A stretch of 60,525 nt of DNA from a virus. This document shows, piece by piece, positions 10,083 to 60,525 of the stretch (positions are counted from its first letter, which is position 1; each line of letters opens with the position of its first letter). Under the pieces are notes generated by a model. It searched no databases. It was not told the origin of the DNA and saw only the letters and a program-made list of their open reading frames with translations. The position numbers and the translations under genes are program-made. The DNA is taken from positions 1 to 60,525 of IMG/VR virus record IMGVR_UViG_3300044764_000010; one strand, written 5' to 3'.

Positions 10083-10147
10083 GTGCGGCGCGCGGGCCCT
10101 TCCACAAGACGTACGTCGAGGGTCGCCTTGCCCTCGCGGGGATCAAT

Positions 10148-10354: not shown

Positions 10355-10366
10355 GGGGGGTGGCCA

Positions 10367-13051
10367 ATGCTGATTGGCGAGGCGACGATCAAGATCGACG
10401 CTGACACTATCGGGCTCAAAAAGCAGGTAAGCGACGACCTGAATGATGCGCTCGGCGGCATTCGGCCACCCGTGGACCCGATCAAGAAGACCAAGGACGA
10501 GGCCGACAAAGCAGACAAGTCGATCTCCAAGCTCATCACCAGTTTCAACGGGTTCGCCGCGAGCGCCGGCCGCGGGTTCTTGAGCATCATGAAAGTCGCC
10601 GGCGGGTTCGCCTCGATGAGTACCGCGGCCAACGTCATCCCCGCCATCGTCGCCGGCGTGGCCACCCTGTCCGGCGCAATGTTCCTTGCGGTCCCTGCGG
10701 GGTTCGCCTTGGCCGGCGTGATGGCAACGATCAAGCTCGGGGGCGAGGGCGCTAAACGCGCGTTCGATCGGCTCAATCCCACGCTTGATCAACTCAAGTC
10801 CAAGGTCTCGACCTCGTTCGAGCTCTCGCTCAACCCTGCCGTCAACAACTTGCGGACCGTGCTGCCCAAGCTCACCTCAGGGTTTCAGCAGATCGCCTCG
10901 GCCATCGGTGGCGTGGCCACCAAAGTTTCGATCATGGTCAAGACCAACGCGGCCACCTCGCAGCTACAGGCGATCCTTAGCGGCACGTCGCGCGTGGTCC
11001 AGAACCTCGGGGCTGCGCTCGCGCCGGTGATCGCCGCGTTCATCAAGATCGGCGCGACGGCCATGCCGATCCTCGTACAGCTCACCGCGGGGGCAGGCGC
11101 GGCCGGCGACAAGTTCAACGCGCTCATCCAGCGCATGGCCGACTCGGGCTCGCTCACCGCCTGGATTCAGTCCGCGCTTGAGGGGTTCCGCGCGATCGGC
11201 GCCGTGCTCGGTGACCTCGGCGCGATCCTCAAGGCGGTGTTCACCGCGGTCCAGGCTGCCGGCGGTGGCCTCGGCGGCGTGCTCGGCGAGGTCATCGGGC
11301 GCATCCGTGAGTTCGTGGAGTCGGCGCAGGGGCAGGCCGTGCTTACCGCGCTGGTCACGGCGATCAACGCCATCAGTACCGCGCTCGGTACGGTGCTCAC
11401 CGCGGCACTCGATGCGATCGGGCCGGCCATCCCGGACCTGGTTGACGCGTTCTCGCAGCTCATCGCGATCATCACGCCCACCATCGTGTCCATCATCCAG
11501 AGCCTCGCCGGCGCGTTCCAGGGTCTCGCGCAATTCCTCGCGGCCAACATGGAATGGCTCGGCCCGATCGCCGTCACGGTGCTCGCCCTGATCGGCGCGT
11601 TCAAGATCTTTGTCACGGTCATCACCGCCATCCGCGCGGCCATCGTCGCGTGGTCGATCGTGCAAGCCGTGCTCAACGTCCTCCTCACCGCCAACCCGGT
11701 GGGCGTGATCATCGTCGCCATCGGCGCGCTCATCGCCCTCGTGGTGGTGGTGCTCACCAACCTCGAGTTCTTCCGGGGCGTGTGGGACACGGTGTGGAAG
11801 TTCGTCTCGGACGTGATCAGCACGACCGTGGACGCGATCAAGGACGCGTGGGGTGCCCTGACCTCGTGGCTCTCGGGCGTCATCGACTCCATCGGGAACT
11901 TTTTCAAGGACATCGGCAATTGGTTCGCCGAGCTGCCGGGCAAGATCGGCTCTTTCCTCGCCGGCCTCCCCGCGGTGATCGGCAACGCCTTGCTCGCTGC
12001 CATGCAGTGGGGCCTTAACGCCATCTACCAGGGGATCCAGTGGTACATAGCGGCGATGATCGCCCTCCCCCTGCGGATCATCGAGGCCATCATCACGTTC
12101 GGTCCGATGCTTTTCAATTGGGCGGTTGACGCGTTCATCTGGCTGGTCAACGCCGTGGTGCAAGGCATCGCGAACGTGATCACGTTCTTCCAGGAGCTAC
12201 CCGGCAAGATCATTTCGGCCGTGATCAACTTCGCGGTGATGATGGCCGAGTGGGCGCGAGGCGCGTTCATCGCGTTCATCAACATGGCCGTCACCAAGGC
12301 CGCCGAGTTTATCGTCTGGGTGCGCGGACTGCCGGGCCGGATCATCGCCGGCATCCAGAACCTCGGCTCACTCCTGGCCACCGGCGCCCGGAACCATTTC
12401 AACGCCTTCTTAGACGGCGCCAAGCAGGTGGGCGAGAACCTCCTTAACTGGGTGAAGGGGATCCCGCGGTGGATTGTCGACCGGCTCGGGGACCTCGGCA
12501 ACTTGCTCCTCGGCGCCGGCAAGGCGATCATCAACGGCCTGTTGAACGGGATCAAGAACGCGGTCAAGGGCGTGTTCGACTTCGTGGGCGGGATCGCCGA
12601 CAAGATCAAGAGCCTCAAGGGCCCGCTCTCCTACGACCGCGACCTCCTCATCCCCGCCGGCAACGCGATCATGCAGGGGTTGCACGAGGGCCTCGCCGAG
12701 CGGTTTGCCCGCGTGCTGCAGTTCGTGCGGACCGTCGCGCCCGAGATCAATCGGGCCATCGTGACGCAGGCCGGCGCGCTCTCCATCGGCGGCAAGATCG
12801 GCACCGACGACCGGCCCGACCTGCAGGCCGAGGATGGCACCACGGTCCCCGCCTCGTTCTACGACAAGCCACCGCCCGGGTACGTCCGTCCGCAGTGGAT
12901 CGATGACCTCATTGCCAACCTCAAGGCGCAGGCGGCCGCGCGAGACAAGGCTCTCGCCGAGGAGCTCACCAAGGTCCAGGTTGTGGTGTCCGCGAGTGAA
13001 GCCAATTCGCAGATCAAGAAAGTCCAGACCACCGACGAACGCAGGAGGTGA
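10367..13051 (+). CDS. tape measure protein
   Basis: 894 aa. Long Ala/Gly/Ile/Leu-rich helical and hydrophobic repeats. Lies between chaperone-like and minor tail genes. Confidence 0.9.
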   Translation: MLIGEATIKIDADTIGLKKQVSDDLNDALGGIRPPVDPIKKTKDEADKADKSISKLITSFNGFAASAGRGFLSIMKVAGGFASMSTAANVIPAIVAGVATLSGAMFLAVPAGFALAGVMATIKLGGEGAKRAFDRLNPTLDQLKSKVSTSFELSLNPAVNNLRTVLPKLTSGFQQIASAIGGVATKVSIMVKTNAATSQLQAILSGTSRVVQNLGAALAPVIAAFIKIGATAMPILVQLTAGAGAAGDKFNALIQRMADSGSLTAWIQSALEGFRAIGAVLGDLGAILKAVFTAVQAAGGGLGGVLGEVIGRIREFVESAQGQAVLTALVTAINAISTALGTVLTAALDAIGPAIPDLVDAFSQLIAIITPTIVSIIQSLAGAFQGLAQFLAANMEWLGPIAVTVLALIGAFKIFVTVITAIRAAIVAWSIVQAVLNVLLTANPVGVIIVAIGALIALVVVVLTNLEFFRGVWDTVWKFVSDVISTTVDAIKDAWGALTSWLSGVIDSIGNFFKDIGNWFAELPGKIGSFLAGLPAVIGNALLAAMQWGLNAIYQGIQWYIAAMIALPLRIIEAIITFGPMLFNWAVDAFIWLVNAVVQGIANVITFFQELPGKIISAVINFAVMMAEWARGAFIAFINMAVTKAAEFIVWVRGLPGRIIAGIQNLGSLLATGARNHFNAFLDGAKQVGENLLNWVKGIPRWIVDRLGDLGNLLLGAGKAIINGLLNGIKNAVKGVFDFVGGIADKIKSLKGPLSYDRDLLIPAGNAIMQGLHEGLAERFARVLQFVRTVAPEINRAIVTQAGALSIGGKIGTDDRPDLQAEDGTTVPASFYDKPPPGYVRPQWIDDLIANLKAQAAARDKALAEELTKVQVVVSASEANSQIKKVQTTDERRR

Positions 13052-16734: not shown

Positions 16735-16931
16735 GGGATGCTCGCAGACACTCGTTGCAGCGCGGCAGTAAAACTCTTCTCGATCGCTATCAGTTCACCT
16801 GCCGGGCTGTATACGGACCAGGTTCCCGTAGTCCGTCGGCTTAGATCATGGCCTTCCACAATCCACATGCCGGGACAGATACACGAGTGCTCCATCCGGG
16901 CAAGAAGCGCGCCCCGCTCGGTCTGGTACAT
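16731..16931 (-). CDS. hypothetical protein (66 aa)
   Basis: ATG overlaps the upstream stop (TGATG). MYQTERGALLARMEHSCICPGMWIVEGHDL... Local GC looks lower by eye. Confidence 0.5.
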   Translation of the reverse strand: MYQTERGALLARMEHSCICPGMWIVEGHDLSRRTTGTWSVYSPAGELIAIEKSFTAALQRVSASIP

Positions 16932-17134
16932 CAGACGATCCGGCCGTTTCGGTAGACCCGGACGATGCGGTCCTCGTGCCAGCACGTCACGTCGGTGTCT
17001 ACGGTGTTCTCGCTGATGGAGAGGCCGTAGGTGCGGACCTGCTCCGCTGACCAGCCGTTGAGCGGCTTGACCGTCACCTTGCGGCACCGAGAGGTGCGCT
17101 TGTAGGTGACTCCGGTCTTCTTCTCTGTGGCCAT
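16931..17134 (-). CDS. hypothetical protein (67 aa)
   Basis: The second ATG of track ORF 16931-17140 lies exactly 7 nt after the minus-strand TAAGAT box. Confidence 0.6.
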   Translation of the reverse strand: MATEKKTGVTYKRTSRCRKVTVKPLNGWSAEQVRTYGLSISENTVDTDVTCWHEDRIVRVYRNGRIV

Positions 17135-17140
17135 ATCCAT

Positions 17141-17169
17141 ATCTTACCCCCCAATGTGGGGGGAGGCAA
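17141..17169 (-). promoter_or_regulatory. canonical dyad-spacer promoter on the minus strand (TTGCCT-C6-ACATT-G6-TAAGAT), leaderless geometry
   Basis: The reverse complement of 17141-17169 matches the family. The ATG at 17134 is +7 from the -10 box. Confidence 0.7.
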
Positions 17170-17172
17170 GGG

Positions 17173-17571
17173 TTACGCGGGGACGATTATCCGCGATTCG
17201 GGCTTCTCCTTGCTGTGCTGCCCATCGGCTGTGAGGTACGTCCACTCGCGGCCCATCAAGAGGAACGGCTCCTCGAACGGGTCCTGTGAATCCCAGAGCA
17301 GGTAGCCGCACGGTTGCGACCAGTCCGAGTTGCCGTGCACGGACCGGCCACCGCGCGGCGCCGCGTTGTGCGTGTCCGGGTCCAGGGCCAGGAGGTTGAA
17401 CAGGGCATCTCGGAACGGGTCGTATTTCCGGCCACCCATCCGCTTGGGTAGCCGGTGGTGTGCGGAGAAGGTGGCGGGATTGAGCACGCGGCCGCTCACC
17501 TCGCAGTACCCTCCGCATCGCTCGTATAGCGCTTCCCGAATTTTGTTCCAGTTCGGCTTGGTGACCTTCAC
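17173..17571 (-). CDS. HNH endonuclease
   Basis: GTG after agagagg. Contains CGGYCEVSG...HHRLPKRMGG...LALDPDTHN (HNH core). The upstream part of track ORF 17173-17745 is junk. Confidence 0.8.
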   Translation of the reverse strand: MKVTKPNWNKIREALYERCGGYCEVSGRVLNPATFSAHHRLPKRMGGRKYDPFRDALFNLLALDPDTHNAAPRGGRSVHGNSDWSQPCGYLLWDSQDPFEEPFLLMGREWTYLTADGQHSKEKPESRIIVPA

Positions 17572-17584
17572 GGCGTGGCCTCTC

Positions 17585-17613
17585 TTGTGTCCCCCCGATG
17601 AGGGGGGTAACAT
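17585..17613 (+). promoter_or_regulatory. canonical dyad-spacer promoter (TTGTGT-C6-GATGA-G6-TAACAT), leaderless geometry
   Basis: -10 ends at 17613. ATG at 17621 (+8). No SD. Confidence 0.75.
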
Positions 17614-17620
17614 ACCCCAC

Positions 17621-18181
17621 ATGAACACAGCAAAGCCAGGGGAAGCCGGCAGGGCCCCCACTGCCGAGGAGGTCCTCGAGGCCGAAAAGGTCCTCGCGGC
17701 CGCGGGCAAACTCGTAACCGTCGAACTCTGGGTGCGCAAAGACATCTACACCGCAGCCCTCGAGATGGCAGAGAGCCAGGGTGAACGCCTCGCCGCAGTA
17801 GCTCGCGCCTCGCTGTTCTCTGCAGCCGCCGAGGCTAAGCCGCTCACCGGCTGGATCATCATCCGTGACGAGAAGTGGATCGGAGAAAGAACCTACCCAA
17901 ACAGTGCGGCAGCGATCGCCGCGGGCAACGAGGCGTTCGCCGACGCCGGCGAAGCCTGGTCGGTCTACCCCGTCGATGCGCCCGAGGTAATCGAACTCGG
18001 CGTGCTCAAGCCCAAGCCTCGTCCCTACGGTGAGGAACGAGAGCGGATCCGGTTCAAGGTGCCGGCCGACACCAAGCGGGACGCGACCAAGCGCATCGAA
18101 GAGTCGGGCGAATCCGTCCCCGCTGCGCTCGAGCGCTACCTCCTCAAGTACCTCGAGCACGGCACCATCGCCCACGCGTAA
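17621..18181 (+). CDS. hypothetical protein with C-terminal ribbon-helix-helix-like motif
   Basis: In-frame ATG inside track ORF 17330-18181. The C-terminus IRFKVPADTKRDATKRIEESGESVPAALERYLLKYLE looks CopG/Arc-like. Confidence 0.65.
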   Translation: MNTAKPGEAGRAPTAEEVLEAEKVLAAAGKLVTVELWVRKDIYTAALEMAESQGERLAAVARASLFSAAAEAKPLTGWIIIRDEKWIGERTYPNSAAAIAAGNEAFADAGEAWSVYPVDAPEVIELGVLKPKPRPYGEERERIRFKVPADTKRDATKRIEESGESVPAALERYLLKYLEHGTIAHA

Positions 18182-32812: not shown

Positions 32813-33376
32813 TTGCCCCCGAAGAACCGGACAAATTTGAGGGCCGTTCCCTCGTCCGACACCAAGAAAGCGCCGGCCAAGAAGACCACCAAGAAGAAGA
32901 CGACGCCTCGGGCTACGCCGGTCCAGATGCGGGCTCGCGCCGCGCAGCTCGTGACTCTCGTGGCCTCGGGCGACACCATTACCGAGGCGGCCACCAAGCT
33001 CAAGATGCAACGGACCGCGGCGAACGAGCTCTACAACAAAGAGCTCGCCCGGATGATCGATGAGGCCGGCGCGCGCGAGTCTCTCGTTACGACGACGCTT
33101 GAGACGCTGCGACTGCTCAAGCAGGCGCACATGCCGTTGGCCCTCAAGGGCGATGAGAAGTCCTCGCGCATCATCCTCGGCATCACCTCGCAGGAGTCGG
33201 ACCTCCTCGGGCTCAAGGCCGCTATCCAGGTCCAGGTGTCCAACCAGCGCATCGACAACACCGTTACGGACGTGGTCAAGCTGATCGAATCGGCCGAGGC
33301 GAGCCTCCCCCGGTTGCTCGAATCGGACGTGTTCATCATCGACCAGCGGCCTGACGACAACGAGTCGGCAGGGTGA
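32813..33376 (+). CDS. terminase small subunit (putative)
   Basis: TTG after aggaggagagca. Lys-rich N-terminus and HTH-like GDTITEAATKLKMQRTAANELY. Immediately upstream of TerL. Confidence 0.5.
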   Translation: MPPKNRTNLRAVPSSDTKKAPAKKTTKKKTTPRATPVQMRARAAQLVTLVASGDTITEAATKLKMQRTAANELYNKELARMIDEAGARESLVTTTLETLRLLKQAHMPLALKGDEKSSRIILGITSQESDLLGLKAAIQVQVSNQRIDNTVTDVVKLIESAEASLPRLLESDVFIIDQRPDDNESAG

Positions 33377-35166
33377 CGGCCTCCCTTGAGGCCCAAGTGC
33401 GCGCTCGCCTGGATGACCTCAACCCCGCCGAGCGCCGGCTCGCACAGATCCGCCTAGACCGGATCCTTCGCCGCAAGAAGGCGCTCGCCGAGTTCCCCTC
33501 ACCGGGCCACCTGGCCAAGTTCGTCCAGCCGGACACGGTCCAAACCGAGATGATGACCGCGCTCGACAAGGTGATCATCTCGGCGGACTCGGGTTTCCAA
33601 CGGAATTGGATCATCAGCACGCCACCGCAGGAGGGCAAGACGCAGCGGATGGGCACGGCCGGCCCGCTCTGGCTCCTGCTCCGTGACCCGACCCGACGCA
33701 TCGTCGTCGCGTCGTACGAGCAAGGCGTTGCCGCGCGGTCCGGGCTCGCCGTCCGGCAGATGATCGAGACCTACGGCGGTGGCTACAAGGGTGACCGTGC
33801 GAGCCGTGCGCAGGATGACCACCTCGGCCTGTTGCTCGACCCTGACCGGGCGCAACAGACGAACTGGAACTTGATAGACGGACCGGGCCGGCGCAACGGC
33901 GGGATGATCGCCGTCGGTGTCGGTGGCGCGCTCACTGGCCGGCCGGCGGACGTGATGATCATTGACGACTCCATCAAGAATGCCAAGCAGGCGGACAGTG
34001 CCGAGCAACGCAAGCACATTCGGGACTGGTTCGATTCGGTGGTCACCACTCGGTTGTCCCCGGGCGCGATCATGATCATCATCGGAACCCGGTGGCACGA
34101 GGACGACCTCATCGGCGCGCTCATGCGCGAGGACGACTTGAACCTCACCCCGCGGTTTCGGCACCTCATCATCCCGGCGCAGGCCAAGAAGAAAGATCCA
34201 CTCGGGCGTAAGCCGGGCCAGTTCCTCACGTCCACCCGAGGCCGCACCGTGGAGCAGTGGCACGAGATCCGCAAGAACGTCGGTGAACGGTTTTGGGCAG
34301 CGCTCTACCAGGCCGAGCCATCGCCCCCCGCCGGCGGGATCTTCCAACTCGAGTGGTTCGACAACAACCGCGTGTTCGCCCCGCCCGAGCTGCAAAAGGT
34401 CGAGGTGTTCGTGGACCCCGCGGACAACGAGGGCGATGGGGACGAGGCCGGCATCGTCTGCGTGGGCCGTTCCTACGATCAGCACTACTACGTGCTCGCC
34501 GACGAATCAGGGCACATGACCGTCGCGCGCTGGTTCCGGGTCGCGTTCCTCCTCGCGCTCCAGCACGGCGCCACCGCGGTCAAGTACGAGAAGTCGCTCT
34601 CGGGCCTGCGTCGCTCGGCCAAGCTCGCGTGGAAAGACATCTTGCGCGAGGCCAGGAAGCTCAACGAACTCGACCGGCGCAGCAATGTCAACAGCCGTCG
34701 GCCCATCTCCGCACCCGGCGAGCTACTGCAGCAAGCGGTGGCCGAGCTCGCACGCGACGACGCCGAGCCGGCCGAGCGACTCAAGCTCGAGCTCGACCTT
34801 GCCGAGCTCTGGCACCACGTGCCCAAGGTGCTCGCGCTGCCGGCGGCCACCGGGCTCCCCGTCCGCGGGTTTTCGGCCAAGGGGTCCAAGACGTACCGGG
34901 CCAAGATGGTTGCCCCGTTGCACGAGTCCGGCCGCGTGCACCACGTCGGTTTCCACATGGAGCTCGTGCACCAATGCGTCGCGTGGCAGGAATCGCAGGA
35001 CTCCCCGGACCGGATGGACGCTTACGTGCACGGCCTCGACCAGATGTCGAACTCCCTCGGGGACTCCTCGATGGAACGGTCTAAAGGCTCTGTGCCGGCG
35101 CGACCGTCGCAGGCCGGCGGTGGCGGGGAGCTGCAGCGCCTAGGGGCGACCACGAGGCGCTCGTGA
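33373..35166 (+). CDS. terminase large subunit
   Basis: GTGA overlap. Contains ISTPPQEGKTQRM (Walker A-like), VMIIDDS (Walker B) and GTRWHEDDL. Confidence 0.9.
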   Translation: MTASLEAQVRARLDDLNPAERRLAQIRLDRILRRKKALAEFPSPGHLAKFVQPDTVQTEMMTALDKVIISADSGFQRNWIISTPPQEGKTQRMGTAGPLWLLLRDPTRRIVVASYEQGVAARSGLAVRQMIETYGGGYKGDRASRAQDDHLGLLLDPDRAQQTNWNLIDGPGRRNGGMIAVGVGGALTGRPADVMIIDDSIKNAKQADSAEQRKHIRDWFDSVVTTRLSPGAIMIIIGTRWHEDDLIGALMREDDLNLTPRFRHLIIPAQAKKKDPLGRKPGQFLTSTRGRTVEQWHEIRKNVGERFWAALYQAEPSPPAGGIFQLEWFDNNRVFAPPELQKVEVFVDPADNEGDGDEAGIVCVGRSYDQHYYVLADESGHMTVARWFRVAFLLALQHGATAVKYEKSLSGLRRSAKLAWKDILREARKLNELDRRSNVNSRRPISAPGELLQQAVAELARDDAEPAERLKLELDLAELWHHVPKVLALPAATGLPVRGFSAKGSKTYRAKMVAPLHESGRVHHVGFHMELVHQCVAWQESQDSPDRMDAYVHGLDQMSNSLGDSSMERSKGSVPARPSQAGGGGELQRLGATTRRS

Positions 35167-36853: not shown

Positions 36854-37053
36854 TGGGCCGCAAGAAGGCGTTCCGTCTCGATGCCCTGTCGTCCGCGCTC
36901 GACTTGCTCGAGTGCATGGTGGATGACGAGACGTGCTCGTTCGACCACCACGGTTCTTGCCAGGATCACTACGGCGAGACCGCCGATGGCCGATGCGCGA
37001 ACACCGCCGCGCGTGAGCTCCTCGATGAGCTGCGTCCGGGGTGGTCCGCATGA
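36853..37053 (+). CDS. hypothetical protein (66 aa, Cys/His-rich)
   Basis: TGATG overlap. Confidence 0.6.
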   Translation: MGRKKAFRLDALSSALDLLECMVDDETCSFDHHGSCQDHYGETADGRCANTAARELLDELRPGWSA

Positions 37054-37739
37054 TGGCGAAAGGGCACTTCATCAGCGGTGGCGTTGCTGGCCTCCTGGTT
37101 GCCCCTCTCGTGCCAATGCCCATGATCGTGGGAGCGAACCAGGGTGTGCGCGGCGTAGGCCTTGTGGCCTCCTATGCGCTCCTCGTGGCTGTCTTCGCAC
37201 TATGGCCGGACATCGACCACCGGCCGTCCACGATCTCGCGTTGCCTCGGTCCGGTCACCTGGCTCCTCTGCCGGTTCTACATGTTCTTGTCGCGGGTCGC
37301 CTACCAGGCCACCCGCACCGAAAAGGACCGGCCCGAGGGCTGTCACCGCACCCTCACGCACACCACGTTGTTCGCCCTCGTGCACGGCGCCGGCGTTGGC
37401 GGCGTCATCGCCCTCACCCCGGCGTCCGCGTGGGCCGCGTTCGTGGGCTCGGGGATCACCGTGGGCTGCCTCGCGCATGTCTGGTTCATCGGCGACGCGT
37501 GCACCCTGTCCGGCGTGCCTCACCCGTTGTGGCCGTTCGTGCTGGTCAAGGGCAAGCGTTGGGGCTCGGTCGGCTACCCGCAGTGGATGCGGTTTCGCGC
37601 CGGCGGCAAGGTCGGCGAGCCGGTGGCCACGTTCGTGCTCGCCCTCGCGTTCGCTGCGATGACCGCGGCCACCGTGTCCGCCACCGGTCGCCCGTGGTGG
37701 GCGCTGGTCGGAGACGCCGCTGGGTGGCTGGTCGCATGA
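37050..37739 (+). CDS. YdjM/DUF457-like membrane-bound metal-dependent hydrolase
   Basis: ATGA overlap. Contains HFISGG..., LWPDIDHRPS and HRTLTHTT. Multiple TM helices. Confidence 0.65.
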   Translation: MMAKGHFISGGVAGLLVAPLVPMPMIVGANQGVRGVGLVASYALLVAVFALWPDIDHRPSTISRCLGPVTWLLCRFYMFLSRVAYQATRTEKDRPEGCHRTLTHTTLFALVHGAGVGGVIALTPASAWAAFVGSGITVGCLAHVWFIGDACTLSGVPHPLWPFVLVKGKRWGSVGYPQWMRFRAGGKVGEPVATFVLALAFAAMTAATVSATGRPWWALVGDAAGWLVA

Positions 37740-38053
37740 GCAAGGTCATCGAGGAGGCCGACAAAGAGCGCATGGTGGGGATCCTCTGCGAGCACGCCGA
37801 GACCACCGCGGACGGCCATGGGTTGAGGCGATGCCGCGGTGTGCCCGAGGGTGACGACCTCACCGGTACGGCAGGGGACCGCAAGGTGATCTACCCGAAC
37901 CATGGGGCTGCCGTCGCTTGTGCCGCCGAGCTCCTGCAGGTGTTCGGCACGCGGATGTGGCCGTACAAGTGTCCGCGGGCCAAGCGCCACCACCACCTCA
38001 CGAGCCGCGGCGACAAGGTCGGCGACACCTGCGCTTGCGGGGTGTCGATATGA
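37736..38053 (+). CDS. hypothetical protein (105 aa)
   Basis: ATGA overlap, in the frame of track ORF 36881-38053, whose upstream part is junk. Confidence 0.65.
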   Translation: MSKVIEEADKERMVGILCEHAETTADGHGLRRCRGVPEGDDLTGTAGDRKVIYPNHGAAVACAAELLQVFGTRMWPYKCPRAKRHHHLTSRGDKVGDTCACGVSI

Positions 38054-38547
38054 CGACGCCGGTATGCACCCGCGGTACGTCGAACGCCGACGACCGCGGC
38101 TCGACCGAGACCCGCAGGCGCCGACGCGCGTGGTTGCTCGAGCGATTCGGGGACGGGGAGAAGGCACCGTGCTACCGCTGCGGTGTCTTCCTGGACAACT
38201 CGACTGTCACCGCGGACAGGATTTTCCCCGGCTGCCTCGGCGGCCGCTACGTCCGCGCGAACATCCGTCCGGCGTGCAACCCGTGCAACATGGCCACCGG
38301 TGGCGCGCTCGGCGCCTCGAGGGTGGGAGTGAGGAGCCTGACCGTGAAGCTCATCGCCATCGCCGACCTCGTGGCCGAGTACGCCGAGATCCTCGCCCGA
38401 CACACCGAGGACGAGATCGGGCCGCACCACCTGCAGGCGGCCTCGGATGGGGTGGGTCGCAAGCTTCGCGAGATGCACCCTGGCCACCGGATGCCGTCGG
38501 ATCGGTCCATCCGGGCCGCGGTCAACCGCCGGGCTCGAGCCGCGTGA
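38050..38547 (+). CDS. HNH endonuclease-like protein
   Basis: ATGA overlap. Contains CYRCGVFL...DRIFPGCLGGRYVRANIRPACNPCN. Confidence 0.65.
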   Translation: MTTPVCTRGTSNADDRGSTETRRRRRAWLLERFGDGEKAPCYRCGVFLDNSTVTADRIFPGCLGGRYVRANIRPACNPCNMATGGALGASRVGVRSLTVKLIAIADLVAEYAEILARHTEDEIGPHHLQAASDGVGRKLREMHPGHRMPSDRSIRAAVNRRARAA

Positions 38548-38563
38548 CCTGAGACGAACGGCC

Positions 38564-38611
38564 AAAAGGCCCGAGATCCGGCGAGATAGCTGCCGGGCCT
38601 CGGGCCTTTTT
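38564..38611. terminator. bidirectional terminator (A-tract, nested hairpin, T-tract)
   Basis: aaaaggcccgag...ctcgggccttttt, with an inner ccggc / gccgg stem. Confidence 0.8.
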
Positions 38612-38627
38612 GTATCGCTCTACACAG

Positions 38628-38655
38628 ATGTATCCCCCCTGGTGGGGGGTATGTT
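38628..38655 (+). promoter_or_regulatory. orphan dyad-spacer promoter-like element (ATGTAT-C6-TGGT-G6-TATGTT) with no + strand gene downstream
   Basis: 16-bp spacer. Points into the 3' end of the minus-strand translocase operon. Confidence 0.4.
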
Positions 38656-38719
38656 GATCTCACTTCTCAGAGGTCTCAGGTCTGCGCACATTACGTGTGA
38701 GGGCCTGAGACTGAGACGG

Positions 38720-40615
38720 CTACGCCGCGCCGGCCTCGTCCTCGGACGCACCCGCCGGCGCCGGGCCCGCGCGCCACATGCCACCCGCCTTGTGCACGCG
38801 CCCGTTCGCCTCGTACGCAGCGAGGCGCCGGTACACGGTCGCACGCGAGACAGTGGACATCTCCACGAGCTTCTCGACCCGAGCCGGCCCCTCGAGGGTG
38901 AGGAACTTGAGGATCTCCTCCTCGGGCTCGGACGCCTCGGCCGGCATGACCATCGGGCCGGACACGCCGCACAGTGCCGCCCACGCGGCCGGCTCAAGAG
39001 CTTTCTGCAGTTCAGCCGATGCGAGGACGTGCCGGCGACGCTCCTTGTTCGGGACAAAGAACCCCTTGGCCGGCTCGGCGACCGAGTGCTTGTCATCGCG
39101 CAACAGGAACTGGCCCTCTCGCAGGGTGGTCGAGTTCCAGCCGAGCCGTCCGAGCTCGCCCCACAGGTTGCGGTTTTGCTGCGCATCCAGCGCGAGGCCG
39201 ACGATGGCCTTGAGCTGCGCCTGCAGCTCTTTGCTGCCGAGGTCGACCTTGGTGCCGTTCTGCGACGCGAACACGAGGCGGACCCCGCACTTACGGGCCT
39301 TTTTGGCGATCCGCGAGAGGAGCGTGATGACGATCTTCTCCATGCCTTGCTGCTTGGCCTCGGCGAGAAGGTCGGGGAACTCATCGATCACGAGCACCAA
39401 CCACGGGTGGGCCTTGCTCGGCTCGAACGAATCCGCGGCCTCGTCATCGTCCTCGCTCGCCTTGCCGAGCACGCGCTCACGCAGCTCGATCACGGCGAAC
39501 ACGCGCTCGAGGATCACCATGGCGGACTCGAGGTCATCGGCGAGCGGCAGTGCGAGGACCTTGCGCCACACACCGAGCGTCGCCCCGCCGGCCATGTCGA
39601 CGGCCACGAGCACCGTGTCCGAGGCAGCCGAGAGCCATGTCATCAGCGAGTGAAGCCAGATCGACTTACCCGAGCCGGTCTGCCCAACCACCAACGTGTG
39701 CTGCAGGTCGTAGATCAACTCGCGACCATCGGCGAGCAAGCCCATGGCGAACCGCTTGCCCATCTCCTTGAGCGAGACCGTGCCGGGCTCGGGCATGGGG
39801 TGATTGATCTTGCCCTTCCACGGGTCCGACGGGAGCACAGTGAGTACCACGGTCCGGGCGTTGTTCGGGTCCTCCTTAGCGAAGATCGATCCCGGTCGCA
39901 GGTTGAGGTACGAGGCCAACGGCTTGACGAGACGCGAGACCACGTCGATGGTCAGGCCCTCGGCGAGCCGGATAGTCAGGGTCGCGACTCGGCCGTTGCC
40001 GTGGACCGCGGTGACCTTGGACCCGACGAACGGGCGCAGGGTCTCGGGGCAGCGGTCCCGGTCCGCGAGCTTCACGAACTTGCGTGCGATCTTGTCCGCG
40101 CGACCCGCGGTCCGGACTCGCCGGTGGTACCACCACGAGCCGCCGTACAGGAGAAGACCGATCTTCCAGAACCAACCTGAGAACTCGGACGGTCCGGCGC
40201 CGGTCCGCACGGCGAGGTATACGCCGATCAGCGAGACCAGCGAGCCGAAGTAGATCCGTTCCACCGGCCGGTCCAGGACCCCGGACTTACCCGAGTCCAG
40301 GCCGCTCGGGACCAGCCGCATGACGATCGCGCCCCACCGGTCCGACAGTTGCGGACCGAACCACGCGACCGGGACGCCGAACGCCGGCAGGACCAGCGCG
40401 ACGAACCACCACCCGGGGACTGTGAGGTTGGCGACGGCTGCGACCAGCCAGATCACGAACCCGAAGAAGACGGGGGACAGGGCCCGGCGCCACCGGAACG
40501 CGAGGCGCTTGGATCCACGGAGCATCTTGGCGCCGGCCCATACCGCGACCTTGGCCATGATCATCCCCCACGCGACATCCAGGGCCCCGCCTTGCTGCTT
40601 AGTCTTCTTGGCCAT
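38720..40615 (-). CDS. FtsK/SpoIIIE-family dsDNA translocase of the actinomycete TraB type (N-terminal TM segments, ATPase, C-terminal wHTH)
   Basis: 631 aa. Walker A VVGQTGSGKS, Walker B WLVLVIDEFPDL. Several N-terminal TM helices. C-terminal VEKLVEMSTVSRATVYRRLAAYEANGRV. Confidence 0.85.
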   Translation of the reverse strand: MAKKTKQQGGALDVAWGMIMAKVAVWAGAKMLRGSKRLAFRWRRALSPVFFGFVIWLVAAVANLTVPGWWFVALVLPAFGVPVAWFGPQLSDRWGAIVMRLVPSGLDSGKSGVLDRPVERIYFGSLVSLIGVYLAVRTGAGPSEFSGWFWKIGLLLYGGSWWYHRRVRTAGRADKIARKFVKLADRDRCPETLRPFVGSKVTAVHGNGRVATLTIRLAEGLTIDVVSRLVKPLASYLNLRPGSIFAKEDPNNARTVVLTVLPSDPWKGKINHPMPEPGTVSLKEMGKRFAMGLLADGRELIYDLQHTLVVGQTGSGKSIWLHSLMTWLSAASDTVLVAVDMAGGATLGVWRKVLALPLADDLESAMVILERVFAVIELRERVLGKASEDDDEAADSFEPSKAHPWLVLVIDEFPDLLAEAKQQGMEKIVITLLSRIAKKARKCGVRLVFASQNGTKVDLGSKELQAQLKAIVGLALDAQQNRNLWGELGRLGWNSTTLREGQFLLRDDKHSVAEPAKGFFVPNKERRRHVLASAELQKALEPAAWAALCGVSGPMVMPAEASEPEEEILKFLTLEGPARVEKLVEMSTVSRATVYRRLAAYEANGRVHKAGGMWRAGPAPAGASEDEAGAA

Positions 40616-41408
40616 CGGTGGCCTCCTTGATCAGTCGCAGGGCCCGACCGGATCCAACGGACCAGCGGGTGATGACGGACCGCTTGGTGACTGGTCCGCT
40701 CTTGGACTCGGACCGGATCCACTCCACGATCTGCGAGTCCTGCGGTACCGGGCTCGAGGTGGTGTTGCCTGCGGTCCGGGGTCGGATGGTCCGGGCAGCT
40801 GCAGCGGTCCGCTTGGGCGCGGTCCGTGCCGGGCGGTCCGGGCTCGAGACCAACCGCGTGATCTCGGACCGGTCCGCGGGCTCGGGCGTGGGCCCGATGG
40901 GTTCGGCGTAATCGGACCAGCCGGACCGGGCCCGCCCGAACCGTCCACGGTCCGCACCGTTGCGCGGACCCAACTCGGTCCGCTCGGGTACCGCGGACTC
41001 GGGGACCATCGGCGGTCCGGCCTTGGACTCGCCGAGCGCGTGCCGATGGAGGACCGAGAGCATCGCGGCAAGGATGGCCGGCGGGATCGCACCAAGAACC
41101 GCGGCGAGCACGGACCGGGTAGAGATCCAGTGGTCCGCCACGTTGGCCGCGAGGGAGAGCACGATGCCCACAAGCGCGAGGGCTCGTGCCTGGTTCATTG
41201 CGGCGGACCGCTCGCGGCGGATCCAGAGGTCCGTCCCGAACGCCACCGCGGCGTCCAGGGTGAGCGGGAACAGCCACGCGAGGTTGCCGAATCCGGCGAT
41301 CTCGGCGAGATGGCGAACCGACTCGAACGAGATGACTGCAGCCGAGGCGACCGGCAGGGTGGCGAACAAGCGCAGGCGCGAGACGCTCATGGGGGGCAGG
41401 CGTCGCAT
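40599..41408 (-). CDS. DUF2637-like integral membrane protein with disordered C-terminal half
   Basis: ATG 7 nt after aaggag. VISFESVRHLAEIAGFGNLAWLFPLTLDAAVAFG matches my memory of DUF2637. About 4 TM helices. Confidence 0.65.
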   Translation of the reverse strand: MRRLPPMSVSRLRLFATLPVASAAVISFESVRHLAEIAGFGNLAWLFPLTLDAAVAFGTDLWIRRERSAAMNQARALALVGIVLSLAANVADHWISTRSVLAAVLGAIPPAILAAMLSVLHRHALGESKAGPPMVPESAVPERTELGPRNGADRGRFGRARSGWSDYAEPIGPTPEPADRSEITRLVSSPDRPARTAPKRTAAAARTIRPRTAGNTTSSPVPQDSQIVEWIRSESKSGPVTKRSVITRWSVGSGRALRLIKEATDGQED

Positions 41409-41410
41409 TG

Positions 41411-41848
41411 TCAGTCTCCTTGGTTCCCGCCGGCGGGAAGCTCGCGCCTCGTGGTCCACCGGTCGTAGACGGTCATGCCGTTGTCGGTCTGCAGGTACGG
41501 CAACATGACCTGGTCAAGCGCCACCATCTCGGTCTCGATGATGGCGAGTTGCGCCCGGACCCAATCCCGCAGGATTCGCCACGCGACCCGCTCGGCGTGA
41601 TCAAGGGTCTGGTACCGCTTCTCGACTCGCTGCTTGATCAGGACCGCTTGGACTGCGCCGGTCCTGACCGGCAGCAAGTAAACGTACGACTCGCCGGCGA
41701 CCACGATGGTGAACATCATCGAGACCATGCGGCCCTGCGGGTCGTACTCGGACCCGATACCGCGGGCCCCGGCGCGGACCAGGTCCTTGGTGATCTCGTT
41801 GGCGGACCGGACCGCGGCAACGGTGGTCGTGTAGTTCGCGAGCGTCAT
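41411..41848 (-). CDS. hypothetical protein (145 aa)
   Basis: ATGA overlap with the upstream gene. Confidence 0.7.
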   Translation of the reverse strand: MTLANYTTTVAAVRSANEITKDLVRAGARGIGSEYDPQGRMVSMMFTIVVAGESYVYLLPVRTGAVQAVLIKQRVEKRYQTLDHAERVAWRILRDWVRAQLAIIETEMVALDQVMLPYLQTDNGMTVYDRWTTRRELPAGGNQGD

Positions 41849-42072
41849 TCCGGGTCACCCGGCTCTACGACGTAGTGCGGGTTCACGGCGCCGACGTTGT
41901 AGCGGACCGCGTTCCAGTTGGACTCGCGAGTCCGCCGGCGGACCGCATCCCGCAGGAACATGGAGACCACGTAGGCGGCCACGACCAGACCGGCCGCGAG
42001 GCCGTCCCCGCGGACCAGCGAGACCGCGAGCCCAATGAGGGCGACGGCCGCAACGATGGATCGGATTCTCAT
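41845..42072 (-). CDS. small membrane protein (75 aa)
   Basis: Internal ATG of track ORF 41845-42183, preceded by aaggag. TM segment IVAAVALIGLAVSLV...LVVAAYVVSMF. Confidence 0.6.
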   Translation of the reverse strand: MRIRSIVAAVALIGLAVSLVRGDGLAAGLVVAAYVVSMFLRDAVRRRTRESNWNAVRYNVGAVNPHYVVEPGDPE

Positions 42073-42078
42073 CTCCTT

Positions 42079-42106
42079 AGCGTAAGGCACCCCCCGCCTT
42101 GGGGGG
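42079..42106 (-). promoter_or_regulatory. hairpin (C6-AAGGC-G6) plus 5 nt plus TACGCT box, upstream of the minus-strand operon
   Basis: On the minus strand TACGCT occupies 42084-42079, exactly 7 nt before the ATG at 42072. No clear -35 box. Confidence 0.4.
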
Positions 42107-42150
42107 TAAGACCATCCTGAGAAAGGGGAGAGATTCACCCGCCTACCCAC

Positions 42151-42179
42151 TTGTGTCCCCCCGATGAGGGGGGTAAGAT
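42151..42179 (+). promoter_or_regulatory. canonical dyad-spacer promoter (TTGTGT-C6-GATGA-G6-TAAGAT)
   Basis: Same core as the 17585 copy. About 35-nt leader with gaggag before the ATG at 42220. Confidence 0.7.
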
Positions 42180-42219
42180 TCAAGAATCAGCATGAACACG
42201 CCGATTCGAGGAGCTCGCC

Positions 42220-50048: not shown

Positions 50049-50311
50049 CGATCTACCGGATCACTCGGCTCCTGCAGGTCGACTCGATCACCGAGCCGCT
50101 ACGGGCCAAGGTCCTTGCCCGATGGGGTGGCCACAAGTACGCCGCGCTGATCGACTGCCCATGGTGCCTGTCGGTCTGGATCGCCGGCGCCGCGGTCCTC
50201 GCTCGGTCCGTGTCCCCGCGTACGTGGGACCTGTTCGCGCGCGTCATGGCATTCTCGGCAGTGGCCGGCCTGATCACCGAGACGGTCGATCGGATGGAGA
50301 ACGACGACTAA
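49994..50311 (+). CDS. DUF1360-like membrane protein
   Basis: Contains AIYRITRLLQVDSITEPLRAKV...LIDCPWCLSVWIA. Start uncertain: ATG at 49994, or GTG at 50024, 50030 or 50036. Confidence 0.6.
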   Translation: MEPRPVGGRPVDVAVDAVAIYRITRLLQVDSITEPLRAKVLARWGGHKYAALIDCPWCLSVWIAGAAVLARSVSPRTWDLFARVMAFSAVAGLITETVDRMENDD

Positions 50312-50331
50312 AGCGAGGGAGTGACCACTTA

Positions 50332-52941
50332 ATGCCCTCGAGAGACAAAGGCTCGTTCTGGACCCGGAACCGCTCGAGCAAGAAGACCGGCGGATCCGGG
50401 CCGGCCCGTGTTGCGTCCGGCCGGTACATCGACCTGAACGACCGCAACGTGGTCAACACCCTGTCCGCTACCAAGATGGCGTGGCAGCAACTCGCATGGA
50501 ACTACCGCGACTTGATCGGCGAACTCGGCGCCGCGCTGCGCCTCAAGGCCAACATCATCTCCAAGGTCCAGTTCATCGCTGCCGCGGTAGTCGACGGCGA
50601 GGACGAACCGCGCCGGCTCACCGGGGATCCCGAGAAGGACGTGATCAAGGGCGAGGACGAGGCGCCCGATGAGCCGATCCTCGCCCAACACGTCATCGAT
50701 GCCGCCATCGACTGCCTTAGCAGGCTGCCCTTTCAAAACGGCTACAGCTTCCAGGGGATGATCAGTCAGTCTTTCGATGTCCCCGGTGAGTGCTGGTTGC
50801 ACGGCTACTCGGACGACGATGGTGATGAGGCGTGGGAGGTTCTCTCCACGAGCGAGGTCATCGCCGGCACCGGCGGCCTGTCGATCATGGAGGTGCCCGG
50901 CAAGGCCGCGCGCCCCATCGACATCAAGACCGAGTCGCTCATCCGCCTCCACGTGCCGCATCCGCAGTGGAAACAACTCGCCGACTCCCCGATGCGCATG
51001 TTGCTCGACCAGTGCGAAGACGTGGTGCTCGTGGGCCGCGAGATCCGCGCGGCGGCCCGCTCGCGCATTGCGGCCAACGGGTTCCTCCTCGTGCCCAACG
51101 AGCTCTCCATGAGCAAGCGCGACGACCCCGAGATCACGCCGGAAAACGACACGTTCCAGGCCGATCTCACCGCGGCCATTACCGCGCCCATTGCCAACGA
51201 GGGTGACGCCGGCGCCGTGGTGCCCATCGTCATCCGCGGCGAGACTGAGGACCTCGAGCAATTCCGGCACGTCACGATCGACCGTGAGGCGTCCCCCGAG
51301 CTCCTCGCCAAGCAGGCAGCCGGCCTCGGTCGCATCGCCTCGGGGATCAACCTGCCGTCCGAGATGATGGACACGGGCAGCGGCGGCCTCGGCTCGGTCA
51401 ACCACTGGACCGGGTGGCTCGTGGACGCGACGACGTTCAAGAACTACATCGAGCCGGACTGCCGGCTGATCGCCGACTCGATCACCATGAGCTACTTCCG
51501 GCGGACGCTGCGCCTGCCGATCACCGAGGGCGGCTACGGCCTGACCAAGGACGAGGCCCTCTCGGTCACCATCTGGTACGACGGCGGCAACGTCACCGAG
51601 AACGCCAACCGGTCCAAGGACGCCGACGACGCCATGACCCAAGGGGCGATCTCGTTCGAGGCGTACCGCGCGGCCAAGGGGTTCGGCGAGGAGGACGCGC
51701 CGAGCGAGGAGGACTTGCAGCAAATCCAGATGGTCAAGTCTGCGCCGTCACCGGACATCGCCGGCCAACTCGCCGCAATCCTCCTCGGGGTGCGCGAGCC
51801 CAAGCCGGCCCCGGTCCAGCCCCCGCAGGTCATCCAGGGGCAGGCCGTGCGCGAGCCGGCGCAGATCGGTCCAGGGGCCAAGCAGGGGCAGGTACCCGAC
51901 GCACCCGTACCGACCACGCAGCCGGCGCCGGTCCGGGCGTCCGCGGCCAAGGAGCCCACCATCATCACGGGCGAGGTGCTCGCCGAGATCGACAAGGAGC
52001 TACGGGAGCGCCTGCGCCAAGCCGGTGATGATGCGCTCCTGCGTGCCATCGAGAAGGCCGGCAACCGGATCAAGGCCAAGGCGCAGAGCAACACCGAGGT
52101 AGCCGCGCTGGTCAACGGCCTCCCTGCCACCGAGGCCGGCGCTGCAGTCGGGCCCGAGCGGGTCGCCGAGCTCGGCCTCACCGAGGACCTCCTCCTTGCC
52201 GCGGCGTTCGCTGCCCTGTCCGCGAGCTTCGCCGTCTGGACCGCGGCCGCCATCAAGACGGCCATCAAGACCGTGGCCGGCATGGTGCCGGTCCCGCTCA
52301 CCAAGAGCTCGGCGATGGCGCAGGCGATGAACGCTCGGATCCCCTCGGCCTGGAAACGGTTCGAGGGGTCGCTCCGCAAGCGCGCGCTCGACAAGATGTA
52401 CGGCCGCGCCGGGGACGAGATGCGGGGCGAGGTGCCCGACACCATCGTGCTGCCGGGGGACATCCGCGAGGCGCTCGCGGAGATCGGTGGCGGGGGCAGC
52501 GGCCTTGCGCTCGGCGGGGACATCCTCCGCACCATCGATGACGTGGCCGAACCGATCGGGTTCACGTGGCGCTACGGCATCACCCCGCGGGCCCGCGCGT
52601 TCGAGCCGCACCTCAAGCTCGCCGGCAAGCGGTTCAACGGGTTCGAGGACGAGGCCCTCACGCCGCCGGCCGGCTACGAATGGGTGGGCGCGCGGATGGA
52701 ACCGGGCGATCACAACGGCTGCATGTGTGACTACGTGATGGCCTGGATGCTTGACGAGGCCGATGAGGTGGCGCGCGGTGACGTGCTGCAGGAGTCGGGC
52801 GCGATGTCCGCCGAGCGGATGCTCGCCGACCTGGACGATGCCGCTGGTCGCTCGGGAACGACCGCTCAACGCACGCGGGACCAGCGGGACCGCATCGTGG
52901 CCGTGCAAGAGAACTGGATCAACCGGAAGGCGCTCAAGTGA
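50332..52941 (+). CDS. portal protein fused to a MuF/SPP1-gp7-like head morphogenesis domain
   Basis: 869 aa, gaggga RBS. Portal-sized N-terminal region. The C-terminus GDHNGCMCDY resembles the MuF H-x-N-C-x-C motif. Confidence 0.75.
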   Translation: MPSRDKGSFWTRNRSSKKTGGSGPARVASGRYIDLNDRNVVNTLSATKMAWQQLAWNYRDLIGELGAALRLKANIISKVQFIAAAVVDGEDEPRRLTGDPEKDVIKGEDEAPDEPILAQHVIDAAIDCLSRLPFQNGYSFQGMISQSFDVPGECWLHGYSDDDGDEAWEVLSTSEVIAGTGGLSIMEVPGKAARPIDIKTESLIRLHVPHPQWKQLADSPMRMLLDQCEDVVLVGREIRAAARSRIAANGFLLVPNELSMSKRDDPEITPENDTFQADLTAAITAPIANEGDAGAVVPIVIRGETEDLEQFRHVTIDREASPELLAKQAAGLGRIASGINLPSEMMDTGSGGLGSVNHWTGWLVDATTFKNYIEPDCRLIADSITMSYFRRTLRLPITEGGYGLTKDEALSVTIWYDGGNVTENANRSKDADDAMTQGAISFEAYRAAKGFGEEDAPSEEDLQQIQMVKSAPSPDIAGQLAAILLGVREPKPAPVQPPQVIQGQAVREPAQIGPGAKQGQVPDAPVPTTQPAPVRASAAKEPTIITGEVLAEIDKELRERLRQAGDDALLRAIEKAGNRIKAKAQSNTEVAALVNGLPATEAGAAVGPERVAELGLTEDLLLAAAFAALSASFAVWTAAAIKTAIKTVAGMVPVPLTKSSAMAQAMNARIPSAWKRFEGSLRKRALDKMYGRAGDEMRGEVPDTIVLPGDIREALAEIGGGGSGLALGGDILRTIDDVAEPIGFTWRYGITPRARAFEPHLKLAGKRFNGFEDEALTPPAGYEWVGARMEPGDHNGCMCDYVMAWMLDEADEVARGDVLQESGAMSAERMLADLDDAAGRSGTTAQRTRDQRDRIVAVQENWINRKALK

Positions 52942-60345: not shown

Positions 60346-60525
60346 GCGACTACAGCACCGAGGACGAGGTCACCGCATTCCACGAGGTGTCGCACGCAGT
60401 GGGGTTCCGTGAGGCCGGCCTCACGGTGGGCCGGCTCGAGATCTACAAGTTCTGGGGTGGCGGCGTCTGCCGAGTCAAAGAGCAGTACTTCACCGAGGTC
60501 CAGCTTCGCGGGTGGCTCATCGGGA
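60342..60525 (+). CDS. FtsH/M41-like zinc metalloprotease domain protein, 5' part (continues at 128-366 after the overlap)
   Basis: ATGA overlap. MSDYSTEDEVTAFHEVSHAVGFREAG... Confidence 0.7.
   Translation, partial: MSDYSTEDEVTAFHEVSHAVGFREAGLTVGRLEIYKFWGGGVCRVKEQYFTEVQLRGWLIG
60399..60525. repeat. second copy of the 127-bp terminal overlap
   Basis: Identical to 1-127. Confidence 0.9.

Follow-up and report, generated by a model that had tools for sequence, protein, structure and literature searches.

The viral genome IMGVR_UViG_3300044764_000010 (60,525 nucleotides, analysed over its whole length and hereafter called the window) carries at positions 38720-42072 four minus-strand open reading frames (ORFs), which form its main reverse-strand island. 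They encode, in the order of transcription, a 75-aa protein (p75), a 145-aa protein (p145), a membrane protein of the DUF2637 family and an ATPase of the FtsK/SpoIIIE type. A preliminary description, made from the sequence alone, had proposed that these genes are a translationally coupled operon that runs against the flow of the genome and has its own control region and terminator, and this arrangement was borne out by the ORF coordinates and by the gene junctions. The stop of p75 and the start of p145 overlap in an ATGA (41845-41848); the TGA of p145 is followed by CA and then, at 41408, by the ATG that starts the DUF2637 gene, with an AAGGAG Shine-Dalgarno site before it; and the ATG of the ATPase gene (40615) is overlapped over 17 nt by the end of the DUF2637 gene and has an AAGGAGG site upstream. 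The position of the ATG at 41408 behind AAGGAG indicates that the DUF2637 protein is most likely 269 aa long; the JGI call gives 263 aa and the longest ORF, from a GTG at 41459, gives 286 aa. A gene map based on third-position GC content places nearly all other genes on the plus strand, and a terminator hairpin lies between the operon and a convergent HNH gene (Table 1). The promoter of the operon must be located in the divergent intergenic region ahead of p75, where the hexamer TACGCT stands 6 nt before the ATG.

The ATPase matches the Pfam family FtsK_SpoIIIE (PF01580) with an E value of 8.6e-13 (48.7 bits against a cut-off of 24 bits), and Pfam families of the helix-turn-helix (HTH) type match its residues 563-616. 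The translation contains a Walker A motif, GQTGSGKS, at residues 311-318 and a Walker B motif, LVLVIDEF, at residues 406-413; the G and GSGKS of the first and the D/E of the second are invariant across 44 homologues. An AlphaFold2 (AF2) model made with 44 homologues as input reached a predicted local distance difference test (pLDDT) score of 86 and consists of N-terminal helices (residues 11-184), an alpha/beta motor (about 200-550) and a C-terminal winged helix (567-616) with the order helix-helix-helix-hairpin. When this model was compared with solved structures by Foldseek, the top match in the PDB was the FtsK motor bound to double-stranded DNA (dsDNA), with E of about 1e-19 over some 400 aligned columns (entries 6t8o, 6t8b and 2iut), followed by the conjugative coupling protein TcpA (about 1e-15) and then by EccC/EssC. 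A sequence search of the PDB agreed with Foldseek that the FtsK motor is the closest solved structure. Pfam, the translation and AF2 therefore all agree with the preliminary description of a 631-aa FtsK/SpoIIIE ATPase with transmembrane (TM) helices, Walker motifs and a winged helix, and the predicted structure shows a membrane-anchored dsDNA motor of the FtsK fold.

The same protein had been likened to the TraB proteins of actinomycete plasmids on account of its domain order. The architecture of TraB and Tra, with an N-terminal membrane domain, a translocase and a C-terminal winged HTH, is indeed present according to AF2, hydropathy and hhalign; the order of the domains alone does not separate TraB from FtsK/SpoIIIE. 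Among the curated NCBIfam models the ATPase matched plasmid_TraB best (3.6e-16), ahead of EccCa (6.9e-12) and FtsK (1.4e-5). Of the annotated relatives, the best is the TraB-like protein encoded by the Streptomyces elements pFP4 and pFP3. Identity with pFP4 TraB is 26% by BLASTP (residues 52-477, E = 1e-18), and hhalign aligned the two with 99.3% probability over the last TM helices, the linker and the motor. The alignment with pIJ101 Tra (97.9%) covered the motor and the C-terminal winged helix.

The membrane protein encoded upstream of the ATPase matches DUF2637 (PF10935) with 1.5e-7 (31.9 bits against a cut-off of 22.8), and a profile of the proteins from this clade matched a profile of plasmid and phage VWB DUF2637 proteins with 96.1% hhalign probability, so that the family assignment of the preliminary description is upheld. 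Its picture of about four TM helices and a long disordered tail stood in part. The AF2 model has four long helices (residues 9-124) and then about 95 residues of disordered linker, and the tail ends in a folded C-terminal three-helix bundle modelled with high confidence (pLDDT 94-96). A fold search with this bundle returned only assorted HTH and winged HTH domains at non-significant E values above 1; going by the model, the protein may carry a tethered C-terminal HTH-like domain. No match in phages or plasmids was obtained by tblastn with the DUF2637 protein of the window. Small membrane Spd proteins had been named as the usual partners of TraB. DUF2637 proteins do occur in plasmid tra operons; the SpdB of pIJ101 type is unrelated to the DUF2637 protein of the window: pIJ101 SpdB is not a DUF2637 protein, BLASTP gave nothing and hhalign 0.1%, and it was dropped as a relative.

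Of the two small proteins, p75 has two hydrophobic helices by hydropathy, as expected of the membrane protein that had been announced, and its homologues lie upstream of DUF2637 in eight related loci. The 145-aa gene is present in the operon and is not conserved as part of the module, since its homologue adjoins the module only in the closest relative (L015) and is found elsewhere, on the main phage strand, in two others (L019 and L030); p145 is thus an accessory passenger rather than part of the conserved core. A 19-nt sequence occurs three times (79-89% identical) about 190 bp apart inside the coding regions of p145 and p75, at 41556-41574, 41749-41767 and 41939-41957. Two of the copies encode LRDWVR and LRDAVR, and the recurrence is probably due to chance.

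Homologues of the ATPase numbered 91 (32-93% identity), almost all on metagenomic contigs, of which many measure 58-63 kb and a few about 150 kb. The DUF2637 protein had 34 homologues on contigs of the same kind, most with a precomputed PF10935 match. Synteny analysis of 25 loci of uncultured phages showed that the module is shared, by at least 25 contigs, as an opposite-strand island. The genes for a small two-TM protein, the DUF2637 protein and the ATPase, all in one orientation, make up its conserved core. The island keeps the same position in all 25, with YdjM, sometimes HNH, and the large terminase gene (TerL) on one side and WhiB and portal genes on the other. In the window the YdjM-family membrane protein gene is found at 37041-37739 on the plus strand; in about 20 of the 25 loci such a gene stands near the module on the strand opposite to it, frequently separated from it by an HNH gene.

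Some members of the family show peculiarities of their own. One ATPase homologue (P0065) is 821 aa long and has a match to PF14890, described by Pfam as an intein-splicing domain, and may contain an intein. HNH_3 domains are present in two DUF2637 homologues (P0102 and P0124), perhaps through fusion or through errors in gene calling. In the family member that is most distant (L003, 7625-12944) the module diverges from a Cro/CI-like HTH_3/HTH_31 gene, and in Mycobacterium phage LittleE (L096, 3953-6134) a 442-aa FtsK-like gene stands in one operon with a recombination directionality factor (RDF) and a repressor; these loci hint at a tie between phage FtsK-like genes and immunity regions. A single-sequence query of isolate genomes gave one match, in Catenulispora rubra (NZ_JAACYW010000083.1, 10001-10513), a mycelial actinomycete; it is distant, with 33% identity over the motor.

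Comparison of the DNA that follows the ATPase stop among the relatives revealed a further conserved feature, an imperfect palindrome of about 65 nt directly 3' of the ATPase gene. On the ATPase strand it reads GTCTCAGTCTCAGG-CCCTCACAC-GTAATGTGCGCAGAC-CTGAGAC-CTCTGAGAA-GTGAGATCAAC. In the window, heptamers with GTCTCA on the ATPase side are followed by the core GTAATGTGCGCAGAC (38680-38694), by the inverted TGAGAC, TGAGAA and TGAGAT, and by GATCAAC; across the clade the layout is two or three heptamers GTCNCAY, the palindromic core, and two or three inverted heptamers with GATCA. The core is single-copy in the window, and nowhere else in it do at least three exact GTCTCA/TGAGAC hexamers fall within one 90-nt stretch (P of about 1e-6). 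The element was found in 17 or more loci of the clade, once per locus and always downstream of the ATPase gene on the same strand. It is more conserved than the proteins of the module: it is retained where the ATPases are only 44-57% identical, in a locus where an HNH gene intervenes (L001) and in the 150-kb genome type (L002, L017, L018 and L032). A scan of 2.9 million viral contigs with a composite pattern gave six matches, all six on contigs with the ATPase. In a metagenome scan the matches of full architecture all had the ATPase on the same strand wherever flanks existed, the remaining matches lacking that architecture and being due to chance. In neither scan was the element met without this ATPase.

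Each copy of the element can form a long imperfect hairpin, equally good on both strands, whose arms vary by lineage and stay complementary. A structured RNA was considered and is not supported, there being no Rfam match, almost no RNAalifold signal and no strand preference: Rfam 15 returned only whalefall-1, below its gathering score (17.1 bits against 37, E 0.11), and RNAalifold on a MAFFT alignment gave -1.9 kcal/mol with one covarying pair. A conserved antisense promoter directed into the element was likewise discarded after its -10-like hexamer proved not to be kept in relatives. Characterised cis-acting loci of transfer (clt) consist of 5-9-bp direct repeats and imperfect inverted repeats that adjoin or overlap the 3' end of tra, and Tra/TraB binds them with helix 3 of its winged helix (PMC3583192). 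In pWTY27 and pSVH1 the clt lies at the tra 3' end (PMC3583192), and the element of the window likewise abuts the ATPase gene. Because it shares this design and position, the element is a candidate clt-like loading site of the pump. Its repeats (GTCTCAY and the core GTAAYGYGCGCAG) resemble none of the described clt loci or TraB recognition sequences (TRS), and they are candidates for binding. A recognition-helix motif, S[RK]A[TQ]x[YF][RK]xL, is common to the ATPases of element-bearing loci and differs in four divergent loci without the element.

The genome around the module is that of an uncultured tailed actinophage. Positions 1-127 are repeated exactly at 60399-60525, and this terminal overlap implies that the window closes into a circle and is complete, with a genome of about 60.4 kb; the JGI collection also contains this 60,525-bp contig. 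With PHROGs, the only scan applied to the large virion and replication genes, a major head protein, a head-tail adaptor, a tape measure protein, a large terminase, a portal and a DnaB-like helicase were recognised. Among about 80 ORFs scanned, Pfam recognised ERF, SSB, a GH25 lysin, YdjM, HNH, RusA, a P-loop nucleotide kinase and two WhiB-like proteins (the second at 6e-16). No integrase, ParA/ParB, GntR or repressor-type HTH appeared among them, which agrees with the absence of integrase and partition genes noted beforehand. The window has no tRNA genes, and megablast against phages found no close cultured relative.

Table 1. Features of the operon, its surroundings and the rest of the window.
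Feature	Position	Strand	Basis or remark
FtsK/TraB-like dsDNA translocase, 631 aa, membrane-anchored	38720..40615	-	Pfam, NCBIfam, AF2, Foldseek, hhalign
DUF2637 membrane protein, 269 aa	40599..41408	-	Pfam PF10935, AF2, junction sequence
p145, soluble protein, 145 aa	41411..41848	-	PHROG match (phrog_17260, a PHROG without annotation)
p75, 75 aa, two TM helices, first gene of the operon	41845..42072	-	hydropathy
Imperfect palindrome, about 65 nt, candidate clt-like loading site	38655..38717	-	directly 3' of the ATPase stop
Divergent intergenic control region	42073..42219		two copies of the dispersed motif
Bidirectional intrinsic terminator hairpin	38564-38610		inverted repeat and terminator scan
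HNH gene, convergent with the operon	37918-38547	+	
Degenerate copy of the C6-N5-G6 palindrome	38633..38654	+	abuts and faces the 3' element
Major head protein	3701-5449		PHROG scan
Tape measure	10367-13051		PHROG scan
Large terminase (TerL)	33373-35166		PHROG scan
Portal	50122-52941		PHROG scan
Dispersed motif, sites	846, 1723, 17142(-), 17591, 21136, 35688, 42090, 42157, 43261, 44707, 57684, 58394		
Dispersed motif, degenerate copies	8159, 38633, 47617, 47835		

The closest counterparts of this module are found in Streptomyces plasmids. Homologues of DUF2637 are present in 324-328 plasmid records, almost all from Streptomyces, and in pFP4/pFP3, SCP2, an NBC_01102 plasmid and an S. chartreusis plasmid the DUF2637 gene lies upstream of the transfer ATPase in the same operon; in the S. 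chartreusis plasmid it stands beside a T4 coupling protein with MobF nearby, and pRVR1 does not have this arrangement. The ATPase and DUF2637 genes of the window are, at the sequence level, solidly homologous to and syntenic with these tra/spd modules. With the TraB, Tra or TraA proteins of pSVH1, pIJ101, pJV1, pWTY27, SCP2 and the integrative and conjugative elements of actinomycetes (AICEs) the ATPase shares the N-terminal TM helices, the FtsK-type motor and the C-terminal winged helix, and the translationally coupled operon with small membrane proteins is also common to the Streptomyces TraB systems. The window differs from them in being a virion-forming genome without plasmid replication, GntR, integrase or partition genes. 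SCP2.27c and VWB gp24 have the same four-helix TM core and long C-terminal extension and, in plasmids, the same place in the tra operon upstream of the ATPase gene; they measure 434-584 aa against 269 aa in the window.

Spd proteins of this kind have been characterised in pSVH1, whose SpdB2 is an oligomeric, pore-forming protein with four TM helices that binds dsDNA, interacts with TraB and is needed for intramycelial spreading, with homologues on the phages phiC31 and VWB (PMC4447253). VWB gp24 is a DUF2637 protein (1.2e-35). By analogy, the DUF2637 proteins of the plasmids and VWB probably constitute the SpdB2 family, as Thoma et al. 2015 cite VWB among the carriers of an SpdB2 homologue, its gp24 is DUF2637, and both kinds have four TM helices and a long C-terminal domain. 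A translocase was not detectable in VWB, though the DUF2637 gene is present; gp25 and gp26 were considered as a split translocase and rejected, as they show no similarity to any Tra or FtsK protein.

Within virion genomes, the pair of DUF2637 and ATPase was found in the searched collections only in pFP4/pFP3 and in the present clade. pFP3 and, according to the literature, pZL12 are grouped with pFP4 as Streptomyces plasmid-phages, which are described, in a passage citing Chen 2012, as conjugating and also making infective particles (PMC4170104). In pFP4, too, the virion genes occupy one strand and the operon running from WhiB through DUF2637 to TraB is an opposite-strand island. pFP4 is 41 kb long and has a tyrosine integrase, ParA, Prim-Pol/DUF927 and GntR, which Pfam does not recognise in the window; there, virion genes are accompanied by no ParA, Prim-Pol, Rep or integrase. 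No further gene is shared in the comparisons made, and the DUF2637 proteins are only remotely alike. Nor did Pfam recognise in the window genome, a tailed phage, the GntR, Rep and Int genes that mark carriage by a plasmid or AICE.

These observations can be brought together in a tentative reading, to which we would give slightly less than an even chance: the operon is a TraB/Spd-type dsDNA translocation module that moves the phage genome to an adjoining cell without a virion, and in a lineage of uncultured tailed phages of actinobacteria it has become a stable cassette with transcription of its own. The transfer function is deduced from gene content and homology, and its steps may be pictured as follows. 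The ATPase would assemble as a hexameric ring in the membrane, and its winged helix, possibly together with the HTH of the DUF2637 protein, would recognise the repeat element on phage DNA that has been replicated, the element serving as a loading site in the manner of a clt. ATP hydrolysis would then drive unprocessed dsDNA through a membrane or septal channel made with the DUF2637 protein and p75, and the phage genome could reach the adjoining host cell or hyphal compartment. Such particle-free delivery would widen the infected territory or seed a carrier state, and the opposite strand, own control region and terminator would allow the module to be timed apart from the lytic genes.

Several results weigh against this proposal. 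Put beside TraB, as had been suggested, the ATPase ranks that family first and gives strong profile matches, and yet it scores 58.8 bits against the equivalog cut-off of 800 of the plasmid TraB model NF041214, and hence cannot be filed as TraB; with the same model the pFP4 protein scores 425.7 bits and pIJ101 Tra has no match. The FtsK-like gp10 of Streptomyces phage Gilgamesh, with 99.2% hhalign probability, is as close to the ATPase as pFP4 TraB is, which means that the ATPases of the clade, the plasmid TraBs and some FtsK-like phage proteins form one broad group. The link between DUF2637 and SpdB2 is indirect, running through VWB. FtsK-like genes were also found by tblastn in phages of non-mycelial hosts, and the nearest cultured TerL relatives, about 35% identical, belong to Rhodococcus, Gordonia and Mycobacterium phages. 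Pfam recognised neither a plasmid-type Rep or replication initiator nor a GntR regulator of the TraR/KorA type, and a genome that has no integrase, ParA or plasmid-type initiator has no evident means of persistence after transfer except lytic growth. As to the element, phylogeny confounds its correlation with the winged helix, to which L030 and L032 are exceptions, and a regulatory site, an origin or a hairpin of the 3'-UTR would be equally possible readings of it.

The pump could act instead within one host lineage, at the septum like FtsK or SpoIIIE, so that phage DNA would end up in a prespore, a spore or a daughter compartment and be carried along there as a pseudolysogen or in a carrier state. 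Among solved folds that of the FtsK motor comes closest, the TM-motor-winged-helix architecture is shared with FtsK/SpoIIIE, as are the gamma-like C-terminal winged helix and the membrane anchoring, and a single oriented cis element would serve here too as a loading site. A genome with two WhiB-like regulators and no integrase or ParAB fits such a role, and the literature ties FtsK-like and WhiB-like phage genes to host development (PMC13587820). We nevertheless regard this as unlikely. NCBIfam puts TraB, and EccC as well, ahead of FtsK; the ATPase lacks the long linker of FtsK/SpoIIIE and has a DUF2637 partner, a protein of plasmid transfer operons and not of division; and FtsK and SpoIIIE are guided by many skewed octamers spread over the chromosome (the FtsK orienting polar sequences, KOPS, and SpoIIIE recognition sequences, SRS), in contrast to one local palindrome in the window, where no skewed 8-mer other than the promoter motif is conspicuous. 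That the ATPase is a generic FtsK-like helper which serves replication, recombination or the handling of concatemers at the membrane, and that the palindrome is a terminator, an mRNA-stabilising 3'-UTR, a regulator site or an origin, seems quite unlikely. This reading would agree with papers on Streptomyces phages in which FtsK-like genes are called replication-associated or left unassigned (PMC11536984; bioRxiv 10.1101/2024.02.16.580700), with the hairpin that the element forms on either strand between convergent units beside a terminator, and with the fact that iterons and inverted repeats are typical of plasmid origins as well (PMC3583192). A plain terminator, however, would covary and not keep a 13-15-nt core and heptamers at 44-57% ATPase identity, and the genuine terminator, with its T-tract, is found farther downstream. 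The element follows the ATPase gene despite the HNH insertion and into the 150-kb genome type, and several TM helices and two dedicated membrane partners would be unexpected in a helper of this sort.

Superinfection exclusion or interference with competitors, in which a resident pump and channel expel or block foreign phage DNA or TraB-type plasmid DNA, appears very unlikely. Separately controlled opposite-strand genes of phages often have exclusion or immunity functions, and both the repressor and RDF beside the LittleE gene and the regulator divergent from the most distant module would suit it. PADLOC matched the module weakly to SspH and HerA; these matches are limited to the generic P-loop region and have no defence-system partner, for which reason membership of a defence system was dropped. 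A conserved, self-linked cis element is not needed for exclusion, and an exclusion pump of the FtsK type is not known to have a precedent.

The wider implication of transfer by the module would be that apparently virulent tailed phages possess a complete conjugation-type apparatus, with pump, DUF2637/SpdB2-like channel, small TM protein and clt, as a second, particle-independent route of transmission; this we consider doubtful. In outline the idea is not new: TraB, SpdB2/DUF2637, plasmid-phages (PMC4170104) and a suggestion by Thoma et al. were already known. The novelty had been sought in the complete module together with an adjacent repeat cluster, and for the cluster this did not hold, since it most likely consists of a dispersed motif, described below. 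What is new is that a complete module is kept throughout a large clade of tailed phages that appear not to be temperate and that it is accompanied by a candidate phage clt. Cultured actinophages have related motors, such as Gilgamesh gp10 and LittleE gp198 (at most 31.4% identity by tblastn), without a Pfam-detectable DUF2637 neighbour like that of the window; LittleE gp198 is also shorter (442 aa) and lies within an immunity region. A counterpart of the 3' element was not seen in these phages, in which no search aimed at it was made. FtsK-like genes are annotated in many actinophages, in no case with a function put to the test, and conjugation of the TraB type, with dsDNA and a single protein, has so far been linked only with plasmids, AICEs and a small number of plasmid-phages. 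A module inherited together with a cis element that is open to cloning and mutation makes a vague annotation a directly testable hypothesis. If transfer does take place, phages could spread among actinobacteria that form filaments or aggregates by more than the diffusion of virions, with consequences for plaque and pock phenotypes, carrier states, phage gene flow and anti-phage defence in antibiotic producers; the boundary between phages and conjugative elements would be blurred beyond the known plasmid-phages, and the palindrome of about 65 nt would be the first phage clt.

The motif in the control region has the form TGTGT-CCCCCC-N5-GGGGGG-TAAGA(T), or CCCCCC-N5-GGGGGGTAAGA in its central part, and occurs at about 15 sites in the genome against 0.15 expected. 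Its parts are TTGTGT, a 17-nt spacer C6N5G6 and TAAGAT, and judging from this arrangement it is most likely a sigma-70-like promoter with -35 and -10 hexamers, in which the GC-palindromic spacer may be an operator or a hairpin. Almost all copies are on the plus strand, intergenic and upstream of genes; those in the control region span 42090-42111 and 42157-42178. Close relatives (L015, L016 and L022-L027) have the motif and distant ones have none. This distribution over the whole genome means that the intergenic repeats are not a private cis site of the module, and they were abandoned as a clt and as the module feature for which the adjacent cluster had been taken. A GC-rich palindrome occupies the position of the degenerate copy at 38633-38654 in relatives as well. 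The octamer GACCCGGA, which we take to be the pSVH1-type TRS, has 20 dispersed copies in the window, mostly in-frame codons for Asp-Pro-Asp/Glu, ranks 11th among 438 8-mers of the same composition and does not cluster at the operon, so that it was discarded. A genome-wide search for KOPS-like skewed 8-mers gave none that stands out besides the promoter motif.

Some features of the genome lie apart from the module. Some 15 kb of small genes, the operon and WhiB among them, stand between the TerL and portal genes, and the two are split likewise in relatives. A second, small minus-strand island at 16931-17745 consists of ORFs of 69 and 190 aa after the tail genes, without a Pfam match; it holds the minus-orientation copy of the promoter motif and sits where temperate actinophages keep immunity or integration genes. 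When 38 small ORFs were pooled for Pfam, one had an Acb2/Tad1 hairpin domain (2.5e-7), which suggests a sponge-like counter-defence protein of the anti-CBASS or anti-Thoeris kind, and DUF6527 and RusA were also found among these ORFs.

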